A stretch of DNA of 53,918 nt, taken from contig CAZWYS010000003.1 in NCBI GenBank assembly GCA_964638295.1, positions 1-53,918 on the forward strand. The letters run 5' to 3'. The notes below the pieces were generated by a model. The model did no database searches and had not been told where the DNA came from. It saw only the letters and a program-made list of their open reading frames with translations. A program made the position numbers and the translations under genes. Source of the stretch: an uncultured Dehalococcoidaceae bacterium (lineage in GTDB: Bacteria; Chloroflexota; Dehalococcoidia; Dehalococcoidales; RBG-16-60-22). Each line of letters begins with the position of its first letter. Position 1 is the first letter of the stretch. This document shows, one piece after another, positions 44,420-48,872 of the stretch.

Positions 44420-45037
44420 CTATTTTTTGGCCATAGCCGCTAGAAGCTTAGCCGCCCGAACCGGGTTAAATACCCCGCAGGCGCATTGCGGCGCCAGAGC
44501 CCTGGCTGCCTCTTCAGGAGCCTTCCTCCCCGCTTTTATCTCACCAACCATAGTCTTGACCAGCTCCGGGGAGATCATGGCATGACCACACATTGTGGTA
44601 ACCTCAAGTATATCACTGCTGGGCAACTTCTCTGTCTTACCCCACGTCTCCAGCGAGAAGTTGGCAGTATGATGCTGTAAGCCAGCTTTCTCAAAGCATT
44701 CATCAACATTCTCAAAAATGCCGCTTACCACTACCGAAAGCCCCAGGTCCGCTTCTTTTAGCTCCTTCAGGACTTCCGTTACGGCTTCTTTATTATCGAA
44801 GACGGCATGTGACAGTTTATTGGCACTGTTAATAACATTCTCCCATTCGCTCGGGTCCAAGCCCCCTTTATCAACATGCCCGATATTTACCGGTTTGTGT
44901 TTTATGGCGATCTTAAGGAACTCCTTTAATTTCGCTTCGTGTCCTTTATCGTTCATCCCCATGGCGGGTATAATCAAAACGACGTAGTCTCCACTCAGGC
45001 TCTCGGCGGTTCCCCGGCGATGTAAGGTGTGCGTCAT
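44420..45037 (-). CDS. Uncharacterised His/Cys-motif protein (THTLHR, HHT, TMCGH, CxCG), copy A
   Basis: GAGGAGGAG RBS; gapless paralog of 48255-48872. Confidence 0.88.
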   Translation of the reverse strand: MTHTLHRRGTAESLSGDYVVLIIPAMGMNDKGHEAKLKEFLKIAIKHKPVNIGHVDKGGLDPSEWENVINSANKLSHAVFDNKEAVTEVLKELKEADLGLSVVVSGIFENVDECFEKAGLQHHTANFSLETWGKTEKLPSSDILEVTTMCGHAMISPELVKTMVGEIKAGRKAPEEAARALAPQCACGVFNPVRAAKLLAAMAKK

Positions 45038-45055
45038 TATCTCCTCCTCAAATAC

Positions 45056-45772
45056 TTAAACTTTTGCTTTAGGTTGACCCAAGCCGGCATTCTGTTTTCC
45101 ATTTATACGATACGAAATACCCAGCTTATCCATCAACTTTCGCAGTGGATAAGAGCCATCCGGGTCAGCCCGGTTGATGCACTCGACCGTCATTACCGTA
45201 TCAATTTCTTTGGCTACCTCTTTCAGGGCATTTATGACCTCTTCAAATTTATCTATGGGAAGCAGGCACTCAATGATAGCAGAGAGCACCTTTTCATTGA
45301 GCACATCTTCCTTGAATTTACCCGTCTTCACGTCTTCCATGAGCATAGTGACCGGGTTCTTGGGTTCGAATTCAACCCCGTATTTGGCGAGTACCCGGGC
45401 TACTTTATCCACATCGCGAAAACGCGTGCCGATGCCCGGTCGCCCAAATTCACAGCCCAGGCCGACCCATCCCCTTTGAAAACGACCGGTGACCTCGTTG
45501 GTCTTCATTTCCTCCGTTCCGCGTCCGGCGATACCTGTTGCCTCGTGCACCCCCCTCGGATTGGAGAAAGTGGCCCGAAGAGAGCGCGGCCAAGGCGCTT
45601 CCTCGAATATAATGCAATCCACCGGACAAACGTTTGAATTCTTGCAGACTCCACAATCTACGCATTCGTCCTGGTCGATAACAGCCACATCACCCTTCAT
45701 GCTGATGGCGTTAACCGTACAGTAGGGTATGCACACTTCACACGCGATACAGATGTTTTCATCAATCCTCAT
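45056..45772 (-). CDS. 2x[4Fe-4S] ferredoxin-domain protein with conserved C-terminal GRGTEEMKTN domain, copy A
   Basis: CIACEVCIPYC and CVDCGVC.....CP. ATG 45772 has a GGGGAGG RBS and aligns with the start of the 46120 gene. Confidence 0.9.
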   Translation of the reverse strand: MRIDENICIACEVCIPYCTVNAISMKGDVAVIDQDECVDCGVCKNSNVCPVDCIIFEEAPWPRSLRATFSNPRGVHEATGIAGRGTEEMKTNEVTGRFQRGWVGLGCEFGRPGIGTRFRDVDKVARVLAKYGVEFEPKNPVTMLMEDVKTGKFKEDVLNEKVLSAIIECLLPIDKFEEVINALKEVAKEIDTVMTVECINRADPDGSYPLRKLMDKLGISYRINGKQNAGLGQPKAKV

Positions 45773-45958
45773 TTGTTCCTCCCCCTTTCTGATTTTGAGT
45801 ACCTTTAATAATATAAAGTATTGCGGGCAAAGTATCAAATCCCAAAAAAGAACGGTGACATTTATTAAACCCTGTCGCGCCTTATTACAGAAAGCCGAAT
45901 ATGGAGTTCCCTGGAGCGACAATGCCTTCAAATAAGCTCACCGACACAGGAAGCTTAA

Positions 45959-46119: not shown

Positions 46120-48243
46120 ATGCCTATGAAAATTGACCCCGAAGTCTGCATTGCCTGTGAAGCATGTATACCATATTGTCCGATGGAAGCAATCAGCATC
46201 CTGGATAACGTTGCCGTTATTGACCAAGACGAATGCGTAGAGTGCGGATTATGCCGGCATGCTCAAACTTGCCCGGGGCTATTCAAAACCCCCTGCAGCC
46301 GCTTCTGCCCTGCCGGTATAGATGTACCACGTTATCTCCAATTCATCGCTGATGGAAAACCCGGTGAGGCACTGGCAGTCATTCGGGAGAAAATACCTTT
46401 CCCCGCCATCTGCGGGTTCGTTTGCTTCCACCCTTGTGAAACAAGGTGCGCTCGAAGCAAGTTTGACGAAGCAATTGCCATCCGGATGCTCAAAAGGTTC
46501 GCCTGGGAACATGACACCGGAGTATGGAAAGAAAATAATAAAGTAGCTCCGGCCTCCGGGAAGCGAGTAGCCATCATTGGCTCAGGACCAGCGGGGCTGA
46601 CCGCTGCCTATTATCTGGCTAAGCTCGGGCACTCAGTTACCGTATATGAAGCCTTACCCGAGCCAGGTGGAATGATGCTGTGGGGTATACCTGCATACAG
46701 GCTACCAAAGGACGCCGTCAGGTCAGAGATAGAGGAGATAGAAAATATCGGTGTAGAGATAAGGACAAATGGCCGGGTTGACTCGATAGACAAACTGTTT
46801 GAAGAGAGCTATAACGCCATCTTTGTCGCCATCGGAGCGCACCAGAGCCTCCGCATGGGAGTCGAGGGAGAGGACAGTCATCAGGTGATGGACTGCCTCG
46901 GCTTCCTGAGGAAGACGAGGCTGGGTGATAACATAGAGGTGGGCGCTAACGTGGCTGTTATTGGAGGTGGCAATTCCGCTATAGACGCAGCACGAACTGC
47001 GCTCCGCCTCGGGGCTAAGAAGGTGACTATCTTTTATCGTCGTTCGCAGGCGGAGATGCCAGCCACCCAGGAGGAAATGGAAGAAGCACTTGCCGAGGGA
47101 GTGAAGTTTCAATTTCTGGTAGCGCCATCAAGGATATTCAGCCGAGACGGGACTGCGGAGCTAGAATTTGTCCGCACGGAATTAGGGGCTCTAGATGAAA
47201 GCAGCCGACCGCGCCCGATGCCAATTAAGGGCAGCGAGTTCTCCATGAGCTTTGACACCATCATTGCCGCTATCGGTCAGCGCCCGGAGATCCCACAGCA
47301 GTTTGATTTGCCGATTAGCCAGGGCAATGTTATAGAAGTCGCCCCCCACAACCTTGCCACTTCAAAAGAAGGTGTCTTCGCCGGGGGTGATGCGGTAACT
47401 GGACCAGCTTCAATCATTGAGGCAATTGCCGCCGGAAGAAAGGCGGCTATCTCCATTGACAGATATCTGGGAGGCAAAGGGGATATTCGCGAGGTGCTGG
47501 CACCACCGAAGGCAGGGGGTGCCCCACGCGATGAAGGTGAAAAGAAGCGGCGACCAACTATGCCAAGTCGTCCATTCGAGCAGCGAATTAGAGACTTCCG
47601 TCAGGTAGAGCTTGGCTATAGTAAAGAGATGGCTATTGAAGAGGCGAAGCGATGCTTGCGATGTGACCTTAAAGAACGAGAGTGCATTTTCTATGAACCT
47701 TCAGACTGGCCACGCTCTATACGCAATCATTTCTCCCAGCCGGGTGTCCCCCATAAAACGACAGGCATTGCCGGGCGTGGGACAGAGGAGATGAAAACCA
47801 ACGACGTTACCGGAAGATTCAGGCGGGGATGGGTCGGCTTGGGTCTGGATGTCGGTCGCCCGGGCATTGGCGCCCGCATGCGCGACGTTGATACATTGAC
47901 CCGGGCGCTGGCGAAATTAAACGTGCAATTCGAAGCCAACAACCCGATTACGATGATGATGGAAGATTCCAGGACAGGGAAATTAAGAGAGGACATATTA
48001 AACGAAAAGGTGATGTCTTGCGTCGTTGAGGCCCTGTTTCCTCTGGAAAGACTTGAGGAGGTACTCAGCGGCTTGAGGGAGGTAACCAGGAAGATAAATA
48101 CTGTGGTTAGTGTTTGCAGTATCAACCGGGCTGAGCCTGATGGCTCCTACCCATTGAGAAAGAAGCTGGACCAGATGGGAATCCCATATTATATTAATGG
48201 CAAACAAAATGCCGGGCTGGGTAGGCCCCTGGCTGATGTTTAA
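46120..48243 (+). CDS. Ferredoxin/GRGTEEMKTN protein (copy B) with inserted GltD/NfnB-type FAD/NAD(P)H oxidoreductase module
   Basis: N- and C-terminal parts align with 45056-45772. The middle carries PCSRFCP, CGFVCFHPCETRC, GSGPAG, GGGNSAID..YRRS, FAGGD and RCLRC. Confidence 0.92.
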   Translation: MPMKIDPEVCIACEACIPYCPMEAISILDNVAVIDQDECVECGLCRHAQTCPGLFKTPCSRFCPAGIDVPRYLQFIADGKPGEALAVIREKIPFPAICGFVCFHPCETRCARSKFDEAIAIRMLKRFAWEHDTGVWKENNKVAPASGKRVAIIGSGPAGLTAAYYLAKLGHSVTVYEALPEPGGMMLWGIPAYRLPKDAVRSEIEEIENIGVEIRTNGRVDSIDKLFEESYNAIFVAIGAHQSLRMGVEGEDSHQVMDCLGFLRKTRLGDNIEVGANVAVIGGGNSAIDAARTALRLGAKKVTIFYRRSQAEMPATQEEMEEALAEGVKFQFLVAPSRIFSRDGTAELEFVRTELGALDESSRPRPMPIKGSEFSMSFDTIIAAIGQRPEIPQQFDLPISQGNVIEVAPHNLATSKEGVFAGGDAVTGPASIIEAIAAGRKAAISIDRYLGGKGDIREVLAPPKAGGAPRDEGEKKRRPTMPSRPFEQRIRDFRQVELGYSKEMAIEEAKRCLRCDLKERECIFYEPSDWPRSIRNHFSQPGVPHKTTGIAGRGTEEMKTNDVTGRFRRGWVGLGLDVGRPGIGARMRDVDTLTRALAKLNVQFEANNPITMMMEDSRTGKLREDILNEKVMSCVVEALFPLERLEEVLSGLREVTRKINTVVSVCSINRAEPDGSYPLRKKLDQMGIPYYINGKQNAGLGRPLADV

Positions 48244-48254
48244 GGAGGAGAACA

Positions 48255-48872
48255 ATGACACACACGCTGCATCGCCGAGGAACTGCGGAGAGCCTGAGTA
48301 AAGACTATGTGGTGATGACGCTGCGGGCAATGGGATTTAACGATAAAGACTACCTCCCTAAATGCCAGGAGTTCTTGCGCATCGCGGTGCGCCATAACCC
48401 GGTCAATATCGCGAGCGAAATGAAGGGGAATATATTCGAGTTGCCCCCAGACGAGATCATCGCTGAAGCGAATGGGGACTCATTTGTCGTTTTTGATAAT
48501 CCCGAGGATTTAACCGGGTTCCTGAAAGAGCTGAAGGTAGCGGACCTGGGTCTATCGGTGGTGGTGAGCGGCCTTTTTGAAAAAGTCGATGAGTGCTTTG
48601 AGAAGGCCGGGCTTAAGCACCATACGGCCAATTTTTCACTGGGAATCTGGGGCAAGCAAGACTTGCTGCCCGGCGATGATATTCTGGAAGTCACCACCAT
48701 GTGCGGTCACGGCATGATACCCGCCAACCTGGTCAAGGCTATGGTCAGGGAAATAAGAGAGGGAAGGCGGACTCCTGAGGAAGCGGTGCAAGTCCTGGCA
48801 CCGAATTGCAGCTGCGGCGTTTTCAATCCAGTCCGTGCTACCGAATTGCTGGCAGCGATAGCCAGCAAATAG
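48255..48872 (+). CDS. Uncharacterised His/Cys-motif protein (THTLHR, HHT, TMCGH, CxCG), copy B
   Basis: AAGGAGG RBS; 134/205 aa identical to copy A by hand count. Confidence 0.88.
   Translation: MTHTLHRRGTAESLSKDYVVMTLRAMGFNDKDYLPKCQEFLRIAVRHNPVNIASEMKGNIFELPPDEIIAEANGDSFVVFDNPEDLTGFLKELKVADLGLSVVVSGLFEKVDECFEKAGLKHHTANFSLGIWGKQDLLPGDDILEVTTMCGHGMIPANLVKAMVREIREGRRTPEEAVQVLAPNCSCGVFNPVRATELLAAIASK

Follow-up and report, generated by a model that had tools for sequence, protein, structure and literature searches.

A near-obligate pair of a ferredoxin-type protein and a THTLHR protein forms a widespread, unannotated two-subunit redox module in anaerobic bacteria

Two divergent operons in the genome of an uncultured Dehalococcoidaceae bacterium raise the question of what a small ferredoxin-type protein and a second small protein of no named family do together, and whether the two act as an enzyme of their own or as an electron carrier for other enzymes. 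The window analysed here is a stretch of 53,918 nt (contig CAZWYS010000003.1 of assembly GCA_964638295.1), in which the region studied lies at 44,420-48,872. Each operon encodes a protein with a ferredoxin domain and a C-terminal domain marked by the motif GRGTEEMKTN, called the partner in the following, and behind it a protein of 205 residues that begins with MTHTLHRRG and is called THTLHR. The pair is a real, widespread and unannotated two-subunit redox module, which probably serves electron transfer in the degradation of organic acids by anaerobic bacteria. A reading of the bare letters (the sequence-only reading) had described the region as a mirror-image duplicated module and proposed a new metalloenzyme with a variable substrate segment; its observation is confirmed, and its interpretation as a whole is partly supported.

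The open reading frames confirm the two divergent operons of two genes each, ordered partner then THTLHR, that had been described before. On the minus strand, partner copy 1 (45056-45772, 238 residues) is followed by THTLHR copy 1 (44420-45037), and on the plus strand the 707-residue partner copy 2 (46120-48243) is followed by THTLHR copy 2 (48255-48872). In the list of open reading frames, partner copy 1 begins at a TTG codon at 45931 (45056-45931, minus strand, 291 residues). Its true start is almost certainly the ATG at 45772, giving the protein of 238 residues that begins with MRIDENICIACE, because all 36 aligned homologues begin at this point with M-(R/K)-I-D and because a GGAGG Shine-Dalgarno box is located just 5′ of this ATG. 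The notion of a mirror-image duplication holds in so far as two divergent copies are present, but it understates the case, since the genome contains four paralogous pairs. One of these, the plus-strand copy of the window, is not the simple ferredoxin-GRGTEEMKTN protein that had been assumed but a fusion with a GltD/NfnB-like flavoprotein module.

Neither the THTLHR protein nor the GRGTEEMKTN domain is assignable to a characterised family, in agreement with the earlier statement for both proteins. The two THTLHR copies of the window and 99 diverse members of the family match no Pfam or NCBIfam family at cut-off, and nothing over cut-off in these databases was obtained for the C-domain of the partner. 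Searches of PDB sequences, with single sequences as well as with profiles, delivered no relative and only chance matches such as XPA (E 0.0094 over 25 residues). A language-model protein atlas contains unnamed clusters only and gave no usable named match, a tblastn search of a plasmid collection had no match, and full-text literature searches found no description of this protein pair. The source names of THTLHR-type proteins are all "hypothetical" or "uncharacterized", with the exception of one JGI entry, "predicted hydrocarbon binding protein". In Pfam, the only match of THTLHR copy 1 is HAD_2 (PF13419) with 20.4 bits against a cut-off of 23.8, and copy 2 has none. A HAD-like identity was rejected, as the score is under cut-off and the predicted fold is not Rossmann-like; weak matches appear in 9 of the 99 members.

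The family is large. Within the length range searched, 2853 homologues of THTLHR were found at E<=1e-3, and the family comprises 611 clusters at 50% identity. A search with a 16-sequence alignment in a collection with one genome per species gave 575 matching stretches, and the neighbourhood counts given below rest on the 78 loci kept from this search. The record titles of these loci name Dehalococcoidia, Anaerolineae, "Deltaproteobacteria" of the Desulfobacterota type, Syntrophales, Methylomirabilales and Bacillota, the latter with Peptococcaceae, Desulfitobacteriaceae and Pelosinus. A cultured holder of the THTLHR family is Anaerospora hongkongensis. In a sample of 301 genomes of the phylum the distribution is patchy: THTLHR genes were detected in 10 genomes with up to eight copies each, and none of the same-order genomes listed in this sample carries the family.

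The two THTLHR proteins of the window are identical at 134 of 205 positions (65%, ungapped, E 3e-98), just as counted by hand before. This identity is unevenly distributed, with 95% in residues 1-20, 43% in residues 21-90 and 74% in residues 91-205, close to the earlier estimate of about 43% for the middle segment and about 77% elsewhere. Segment 21-90 is indeed the variable part between the paralogs; within groups of orthologues it is fairly well kept, as it shows 81.8% identity among 17 orthologues (at least 80% overall identity) compared with 87.7% in the rest of the protein. Across the 99 diverse members, R7, C150, G151, H152, C185, C187 and N191 are invariant, and H3, H6, G9, D17, G99, S101, G106, H123, S128, G130, G133, M149 and G188 are conserved in at least 90%. 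The histidines and cysteines that had been singled out from the two copies are thus conserved family-wide for H3, H6, H123, C150-G-H152 and C185-x-C187, but not for H122, the first histidine of the "HHT" motif.

A model of THTLHR copy 2 calculated with AF2 (pLDDT 96.4, pTM 0.92) consists of an N-terminal, ferredoxin-like alpha/beta domain, a beta-alpha-beta-beta-alpha-beta sandwich at about residues 15-108, followed by a conserved loop at 119-135 and a C-terminal part of four helices with C150-G-H152 and C185-x-C187. Foldseek found nothing at E<=1e-3 for this model in the PDB. A wide VIA-align search returned only generic ferredoxin-like matches and hardly tested residues 133-205, and for this reason we do not claim a new fold for the C-terminal domain. 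Similarity to ACT-, PII- and YkoF-like ligand-binding domains of the ferredoxin fold was seen at the level of the common background.

In the case of the partner, the N-terminal domain has the about 55 residues of a ferredoxin fold and two CxxCxxCxxxC(P) motifs, so that eight cysteines in both copies correspond to a clostridial-type 2x[4Fe-4S] ferredoxin (Fer4/Fer4_21). The Fer4 scores are 26.1 and 32 bits against a cut-off of 21.1, and all eight cysteines (C8, C11, C14, C18, C37, C40, C43 and C49) are invariant in 36 partners. In copy 1 the ferredoxin domain covers residues 1-58, and about residues 60-238 form the unassigned domain with GRGTEEMKTN, GRPG and NGKQNAGLG. The two partners of the window share 31 of 50 residues (62%) in the ferredoxin part (residues 1-50 of partner 1) and 120 of 211 (57%) over the C-domain (residues 28-238 of partner 1). 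The motifs that had been noticed in these two proteins are conserved across the 36 partners, including G83, R84, K90, G110, R111, P112, K226, G230 and G232; further invariant residues are R63, S70, G151 and E168.

Partner copy 2 differs from this scheme by an inserted module of about 400 residues, resulting in the order ferredoxin, GltD-like flavoprotein, C-domain. Its ferredoxin domain (46120-46275, residues 1-52) carries the Fer4 match of 32 bits, an NAD(P)H-FAD oxidoreductase module resembling GltD, NfnB and dihydropyrimidine dehydrogenase follows (46255-47481, about residues 46-454), and the GRGTEEMKTN C-domain occupies 47677-48243 (about residues 520-707 plus the stop codon). The module scores 72 bits for Fer4_20 (cut-off 25.8) and 111 bits for Pyr_redox_2 (cut-off 26.1). 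With NCBIfam, the best models include those of the type "NADPH-dependent glutamate synthase small subunit", all of them under their curated cut-offs: NF009410 ("NAD(P)-binding protein") with 481.2 against 516, NF009454 with 462.7 against 916 and TIGR01316 (gltA) with 350.2 against 471.75. This fusion is no peculiarity of the window, since the same flavoprotein is present in every long homologue found for the C-domain of the partner (26 of 26). Through this reductase, NAD(P)H could serve the unit as electron donor, or NAD(P)+ as acceptor. In known enzymes such as GltD, NfnB, SudA and the N-terminal module of dihydropyrimidine dehydrogenase, which likewise combine Fer4_20 and Pyr_redox_2, a module of this type passes electrons of NAD(P)H to a separate catalytic unit. 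Here, however, the place of that catalytic unit is taken by the GRGTEEMKTN domain and the THTLHR subunit, and the NCBIfam models of the known types remain under cut-off.

Does the combination of a ferredoxin-type and a small cysteine-bearing subunit point to a very divergent member of a characterised family? Candidates would be the CCG proteins of the HdrB/GlcF/LutA type, the alpha and beta subunits of iron-sulfur (Fe-S) dehydratases and ferredoxin:thioredoxin reductase. The layout is alike, as all show a ferredoxin-type subunit and a small subunit with cysteines in organic-acid clusters. HdrC/HdrB, GlcF and LutA/LutB couple a 2x[4Fe-4S] unit to such a subunit and belong to the lactate- or glycolate-type clusters of anaerobes, and GlcDEF genes occur in 14 of the 78 pair loci. 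The CCG motif is rich in cysteine with five or more conserved residues, whereas THTLHR has only three invariant cysteines (C150, C185 and C187) and one histidine and is built as a sandwich with a helical domain. CCG (PF02754) gave no match in the two THTLHR copies of the window, nor was it present among the 25 most frequent of the 67 weak families in the scan of the 99 members. Ferredoxin:thioredoxin reductase, composed of a catalytic and a variable subunit, holds a [4Fe-4S] cluster next to a redox-active cysteine pair and a histidine. It resembles the pair as a heterodimer fed by ferredoxin-type clusters, with motifs of the CxC and CxH type and one part that diverges between paralogs; it differs in that there is no match in sequence or fold, THTLHR has too few cysteines and the ferredoxin is fused into the complex. 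A BFD-like [2Fe-2S] domain (PF04324) was also rejected for the C-terminal part of THTLHR, because hhalign against a BFD alignment of 19 sequences built from genomic matches yielded a probability of 0.7% (E 0.078, 16 columns); the patterns are C-x-H...C-x-C in THTLHR and C-x-C...C-x2-C in BFD. Together with the lack of a family at cut-off, of a PDB sequence match and of a Foldseek match, and with the unnamed clusters of the atlas, this makes membership in one of these families the least probable of the explanations considered here.

The association of the two genes was analysed by gene neighbourhood, as the sequence-only reading had suggested for a test of obligate pairing. In the phylum sample, 25 of 25 full-length THTLHR genes from the 10 genomes are immediately preceded by a partner gene in the same orientation. 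A 26th match (L030:1408-2046, minus strand) is a degenerate remnant, in which the C-terminal 77 residues of THTLHR are readable behind a broken ferredoxin-like stretch next to a MmgE/PrpD gene; its interpretation as a ferredoxin fused to a C-terminal THTLHR domain was dropped on this reading. The species collection comprises 101 full-length THTLHR genes in the 78 loci, 78 of them with their own partner directly upstream. Ten more are too near to a contig end to tell, six are the second gene in a tandem directly behind a partner-THTLHR pair, and seven are orphans. Pairing is hence the rule and close to obligate (78/91 evaluable genes), but not absolute, and the outcome that would have spoken against the earlier proposal, homologues occurring mostly unpaired, was not seen.

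The exceptions follow recognisable patterns. At five loci (L088, L095, L096, L099 and L103) a THTLHR protein with 78-81% identity to the copy on contig C19 of the genome studied here is encoded close to a trpE (anthranilate synthase) operon, at a distance of a few genes. At L095 and L103 trpE is found within two open reading frames of the orphan and at L088 a few genes downstream; these three have room upstream for a partner and contain none, while L096 and L099 are too near to the contig end to tell. The partner of the trpE-linked orphans must be encoded elsewhere or shared. At L078, L079, L081, L084 and L109 one partner is followed by two THTLHR genes, and mixed arrays reach up to three THTLHR genes with two partners. 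Such arrays suggest exchangeable small subunits on one ferredoxin subunit. Fusions connect the components as well: P0384 (476 residues, named "4Fe-4S dicluster domain-containing protein" in its source) unites THTLHR, a ferredoxin and a partner-like C-domain with 31% identity to the partner (E 3e-36), and in P0245 and L032:4557-5678 a THTLHR protein is joined to a Fer4_11 polyferredoxin.

Structure prediction is in line with a two-subunit module, as claimed before. Three runs for THTLHR and partner resulted in ipSAE values of 0.91, 0.92 and 0.91, in contrast to 0.00 for the best of three controls. Of 80 solved complexes, 58 attain this ipSAE mark, compared with 2 of 110 mismatched pairs; these counts are a rough guide, because our own alignments were used. 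At least 97% of the contacts recur between the runs, and the partner chain has a pLDDT of at least 91. Since neither protein has a solved relative, the prediction cannot be a recall of a known complex. On the side of the partner, the predicted interface comprises residues 15-19, 21, 40, 42 and 45-46 of the ferredoxin domain, 84-95 (GRGTEEMKTN), 111-114 (GRPG) and 219-234 (the C-terminal tail with NGKQNAGLG). On the side of THTLHR it comprises residues 1-2 and 4-8 (the N-terminal THTLHR), 97-109 (SVVVSG), 120-135 (the loop of H123, S128, G130 and G133), 152-154 and 156-159 (the H152 stretch), and 183-184 and 186-187 around CxC. The two proteins are thus predicted to form one complex with most conserved motifs of both in the interface, and the cysteine/histidine site of THTLHR would abut a [4Fe-4S] cluster. 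The listed contacts do not include THTLHR residues H3, C150, C185 and N191 or partner residue E168.

How could such a complex work? We consider the chances about evenly balanced that the pair is an obligate heterodimeric iron-sulfur oxidoreductase with a composite active site at the interface, to which the cysteine/histidine set belongs. The region would then contain two of the four paralogous copies of this enzyme in the genome. The partner, as the first subunit, would carry two [4Fe-4S] clusters on the clostridial-type ferredoxin domain next to an alpha/beta domain of about 180 residues, and THTLHR, as the second, would wrap onto it, so that the conserved loops of both form one site. To this site the partner would contribute GRGTEEMKTN, GRPG and the C-terminal NGKxNxGLG tail, and THTLHR its N-terminal THTLHR, SVVVSG, the H123/S128 loop, C150-G-H152 and C185-x-C187. 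The set of three cysteines and one histidine (C150, H152, C185 and C187), possibly with H3, H6 and H123, might hold a further metal or Fe-S centre, or contain a pair of redox-active cysteines. The composite site would take up low-potential electrons and act on a small molecule. These electrons might come from NAD(P)H through the fused flavoprotein or from ferredoxin-type clusters that tungsten AOR or CODH-like enzymes reduce, with the direction of flow being our assumption. The invariant residues R7 and N191 of THTLHR and R84, K90, R111, E168 and K226 of the partner would bind a small anionic substrate, an idea that fits the organic-acid importers and CoA-transferases encoded nearby.

The genomic surroundings of the pair were inferred from crude calls of open reading frames, which were clustered and the cluster representatives named with Pfam and NCBIfam. 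Within the 78 loci, LarA is found in 20, AOR in 16 (in 12 of them directly upstream of the partner), a xylose-isomerase-like TIM barrel in 16, GlcD/E in 14 and GlcF in seven. Importers of the TRAP or TTT type adjoin the pair (DctP 10/78, DctM 10/78, DctQ 8/78), and less frequent neighbours are family-III CoA-transferases (8/78), TPP enzymes (6/78), HpcH aldolases (6/78) and CODH-like proteins (6/78). A typical cluster of Dehalococcoidia reads HpcH aldolase, a small open reading frame, tungsten-type AOR, partner-THTLHR, LarA, the TIM barrel and GlcD-GlcE-GlcF, and in these AOR clusters the pair often occurs twice or as partner-THTLHR-THTLHR. In a second recurrent type, the pair is followed by one or two family-III CoA-transferases and sometimes preceded by a TPP enzyme. 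The fused copy of the window fits this type, as it is followed by a family-III CoA-transferase, an HMG-CoA-lyase-like gene and sucC/sucD.

A third arrangement, in Bacillota, Desulfobacterota and some Chloroflexota, runs from a CooF-type polyferredoxin through a short CODH-like protein and the pair to a PadH/FNOR-type NADH oxidoreductase (L035, L037, L040, L143, L144, L146, L148 and L151). The CODH-like proteins, encoded for example at L035:5718-7178, L037:7448-8914, L040:4886-6352 and L151:5619-7187, have about 487-526 residues and reach only 163-169 bits for CO_DH_cata, far under the cut-off of 478; they may represent an uncharacterised class of CODH/HCP-like enzymes. At L032 a ferredoxin-FNOR fusion adjoins the pair. 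A passage of PMC6344411 mentions that FNOR/CooF-type Ni-CODH clusters also contain "functionally unknown proteins". With its own 2x[4Fe-4S] domain, with flavoproteins or polyferredoxins as fusions or neighbours and with adjoining AOR or CODH-like genes, the unit is wired to low-potential redox chemistry.

Several observations weigh against an enzyme with its own active site. Only three cysteines are invariant in the 99 THTLHR sequences and therefore too few for a classic all-cysteine cluster, and the C-domain of the partner is without any conserved cysteine or histidine in the 36 sequences. The seven orphan THTLHR genes and the six partner-THTLHR-THTLHR arrays break a strict 1:1 pairing. Both unassigned domains show only the very common ferredoxin-like sandwich (Z <=7.2), at the level of the common background and typical also of ligand-binding regulatory domains. 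In the 78 loci there is no universally conserved third gene and no single conserved neighbour related to a substrate, and such heterogeneous contexts fit a general electron relay as well as an enzyme. A position directly behind an AOR or CODH-like gene is, moreover, usual for dedicated electron-transfer subunits.

The last two points lead to the main rival explanation, in which the pair would be a dedicated electron-transfer hub that acts on no substrate itself, a specialised ferredoxin with possibly a third cluster on THTLHR. Electrons from AOR, GlcDEF-type or CODH-like enzymes would enter it and leave either to NAD(P)+, by the GltD-like protein or FNOR, or to hydrogenase, and segment 21-90 would be a docking surface. 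The 12 loci with the pair directly behind AOR, and several others with the pair between CODH-like and FNOR genes, place it where carriers of the CooF/AorA type are located, and the GltD fusion would give a self-contained NAD(P)H:carrier reductase. The genome studied here also encodes six AOR proteins of its own that require acceptors, and the heterogeneity of the contexts as such speaks for a relay. Electron-transfer genes linked to AOR are those for the polyferredoxin AorA and the flavoprotein AorC, and the pair resembles AorA/CooF with AorC/FNOR in its position behind AOR (12 loci) and among CooF, CODH-like and FNOR genes (8 loci). It differs from AorA and CooF by its small ferredoxin of the clostridial type (Fer4/Fer4_21) instead of Fer4_11, by about 180 extra residues and by the need for THTLHR. 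A true CooF is present in addition to the pair in the CODH-like clusters, so that a second carrier would be redundant. A hub also leaves the about 380 extra residues with a buried and highly conserved polar interface unexplained, and many pairs adjoin transporters or CoA-transferases without an obvious dehydrogenase. We regard the hub as possible, but on balance rather doubt it.

The frequent metal enzymes in the neighbourhood could alternatively indicate a factor for maturation or repair of a metal site or cofactor, e.g. of nickel (the pincer cofactor of LarA or the C-cluster of CODH-like proteins) or of tungsten in AOR, with the N-terminal histidines and the cysteine/histidine site handling the metal and the ferredoxin supplying reducing power. 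Metal-enzyme neighbours recur with LarA in 20, AOR in 16 and CODH-like proteins in six of the 78 loci, and the N-terminus MTHTLH presumably resembles N-terminal histidine motifs for metal binding. In the phylum sample, all 10 genomes with the pair also have LarA, compared with 136 of 301 overall. Three genomes marked as unpublished are counted in these tallies (G038 and G227 in both 136/301 and 159/301, G145 only for LarA), and no individual statement depends on them. The genome studied here encodes four LarA homologues (C9:1372-1959, C1:48855-49436, C22:7514-8092 and C69:4659-5243), but LarC was not found in it and neither LarB nor LarE exceeded the cut-off. Searches of five related genomes in which the AOR-pair-LarA cluster occurs gave no LarC in any of them (5 of 5). 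Such bacteria might obtain the cofactor by another route of synthesis or from outside, unless their LarA homologues function in another way. LarC is, however, present in 9 of the 10 pair-positive genomes, and some genomes with LarA have neither LarC nor the pair (G168, G212, G105 and G141). A replacement of LarC or of LarBCE by the pair was rejected on these grounds. Also, only one of the four LarA genes of this genome adjoins a pair, many pairs are located next to TRAP or TTT transporters or CoA-transferases with no metalloenzyme nearby, and up to eight paralogs per genome are unusual for a chaperone. Altogether, we consider a maturation factor unlikely.

Still less probable, in our opinion, is a regulatory module that senses redox state or metabolites, in which the ACT-like ferredoxin-fold domains would bind a ligand, the clusters would report the redox state and neighbouring enzymes or transporters would be modulated. 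The similarity to folds of this kind is only at the level of the common background, there is no DNA-binding or signalling output domain, and the fusions to an NAD(P)H-FAD reductase and to polyferredoxins point to the throughput of electrons.

Returning to the genome of the window, the reading as an oxidoreductase can be considered together with its four pairs. The assembly has 1.64 Mb in 112 contigs with a completeness of 96.9% and contains four THTLHR genes and four partner C-domains, in 4 of 4 cases ordered partner then THTLHR. Apart from the two pairs of the window, one is located on contig C19 behind a TRAP transporter. The fourth is split by a contig break: contig C93 (2079-4037) ends with AOR and residues 1-35 of a partner ferredoxin, and contig C9 (1-1153) starts inside a partner and continues with THTLHR, LarA, the TIM barrel, GlcD, GlcE and GlcF. 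Joined, the two contigs give one cluster AOR-partner-THTLHR-LarA-TIM-GlcDEF, followed by a further gene that, judged by its N-terminal sequence, is likely to encode a glycerate kinase. Six tungsten AOR-family genes (on C10, C6, C80, C25, C68 and C93) are unusually dense for a genome of 1.6 Mb. A large subunit of [NiFe]-hydrogenase is encoded, while [FeFe] hydrogenase was not found in this genome. The pair is not needed as the sole outlet for reduced ferredoxin because of this [NiFe]-hydrogenase, and such a role was not supported.

The nearest relatives of three of the four copies keep the context of the respective copy, i.e. the GltD fusion, the TRAP transporter or AOR-LarA. For copy 1, the species representatives contain no close orthologue. 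The paralogs are thus specialised by context. Differing mainly in residues 21-90 of THTLHR and being located in different catabolic clusters, they would probably serve different organic-acid pathways. Judged by its sequence variation, segment 21-90 may determine the choice of substrate if the pair is an enzyme, or the docking of different partner enzymes if it is a carrier.

With regard to the further features of the window, the divergent spacer between the two operons (45773-46119, 347 bp) contains promoter-like sites for both. On the plus strand, TTGACA-18-TATAAT at 45959-45988 agrees with the consensus in 12 of 12 positions, and on the minus strand a site at 45838-45810 agrees in 10 of 12, both being consensus matches only. 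Contigs of lake-water metatranscriptomes from two studies match short parts of copy 1 at 90-99% likeness. One of them, of 285 nt, bridges the junction of partner 1 and THTLHR 1 (44900-45184), and matches of 37 nt at 48682-48718 correspond to the conserved TTMCGH region of relatives. These contigs are a weak hint at expression in relatives, as contigs from RNA libraries do not prove transcription and stretches without coverage carry no information. Upstream of copy 1 and on the opposite strand (40649-44351), an export system of HlyD-like adaptor, ABC ATPase and MacB/FtsX-type permease is encoded, for which no link to the pair was seen. The genes downstream of the fused copy (49119-53320) comprise the family-III CoA-transferase, the best models of which are of the succinate-glutarate, oxalate and mesaconate types and all under cut-off, the HMG-CoA-lyase-like gene (361 bits, over cut-off) and sucC/sucD. 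By sequence they look like a C5-dicarboxylate or citramalyl-CoA-type route.

In its furthest form, the proposal of an oxidoreductase is that the heterodimer represents a reductase of a new class that depends on ferredoxin or NAD(P)H. It would hold an undescribed metal or Fe-S centre of three cysteines, one histidine and the N-terminal histidines at the subunit interface beside a [4Fe-4S] cluster, and each paralog would reduce or oxidise a different small organic acid. In strict anaerobes poor in quinones, among them non-dehalogenating Dehalococcoidia, syntrophs and Sporomusaceae, the paralogs would supply a missing redox step between the modules of tungsten AOR, LarA/GlcDEF and CODH-like proteins. 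We put this forward tentatively and lean somewhat against it in its full extent.

The family is large and unannotated, with four copies in a genome of 1.6 Mb and up to eight in others, and the pair stands in the core of clusters for the catabolism of organic acids and aldehydes in strict anaerobes that dominate sediments and aquifers. The cultured holder Anaerospora hongkongensis makes the question testable, and the GltD-fused copy, carrying its own NAD(P)H input, lends itself to a simple NAD(P)H-linked assay. If the pair is an enzyme, it would fill a gap in the pathways for organic acids and aldehydes, possibly with a new kind of metal site; if it is a carrier, the coupling of AOR, GlcDEF-type and CODH-like enzymes to NAD(P)H in organisms without quinones would be explained.

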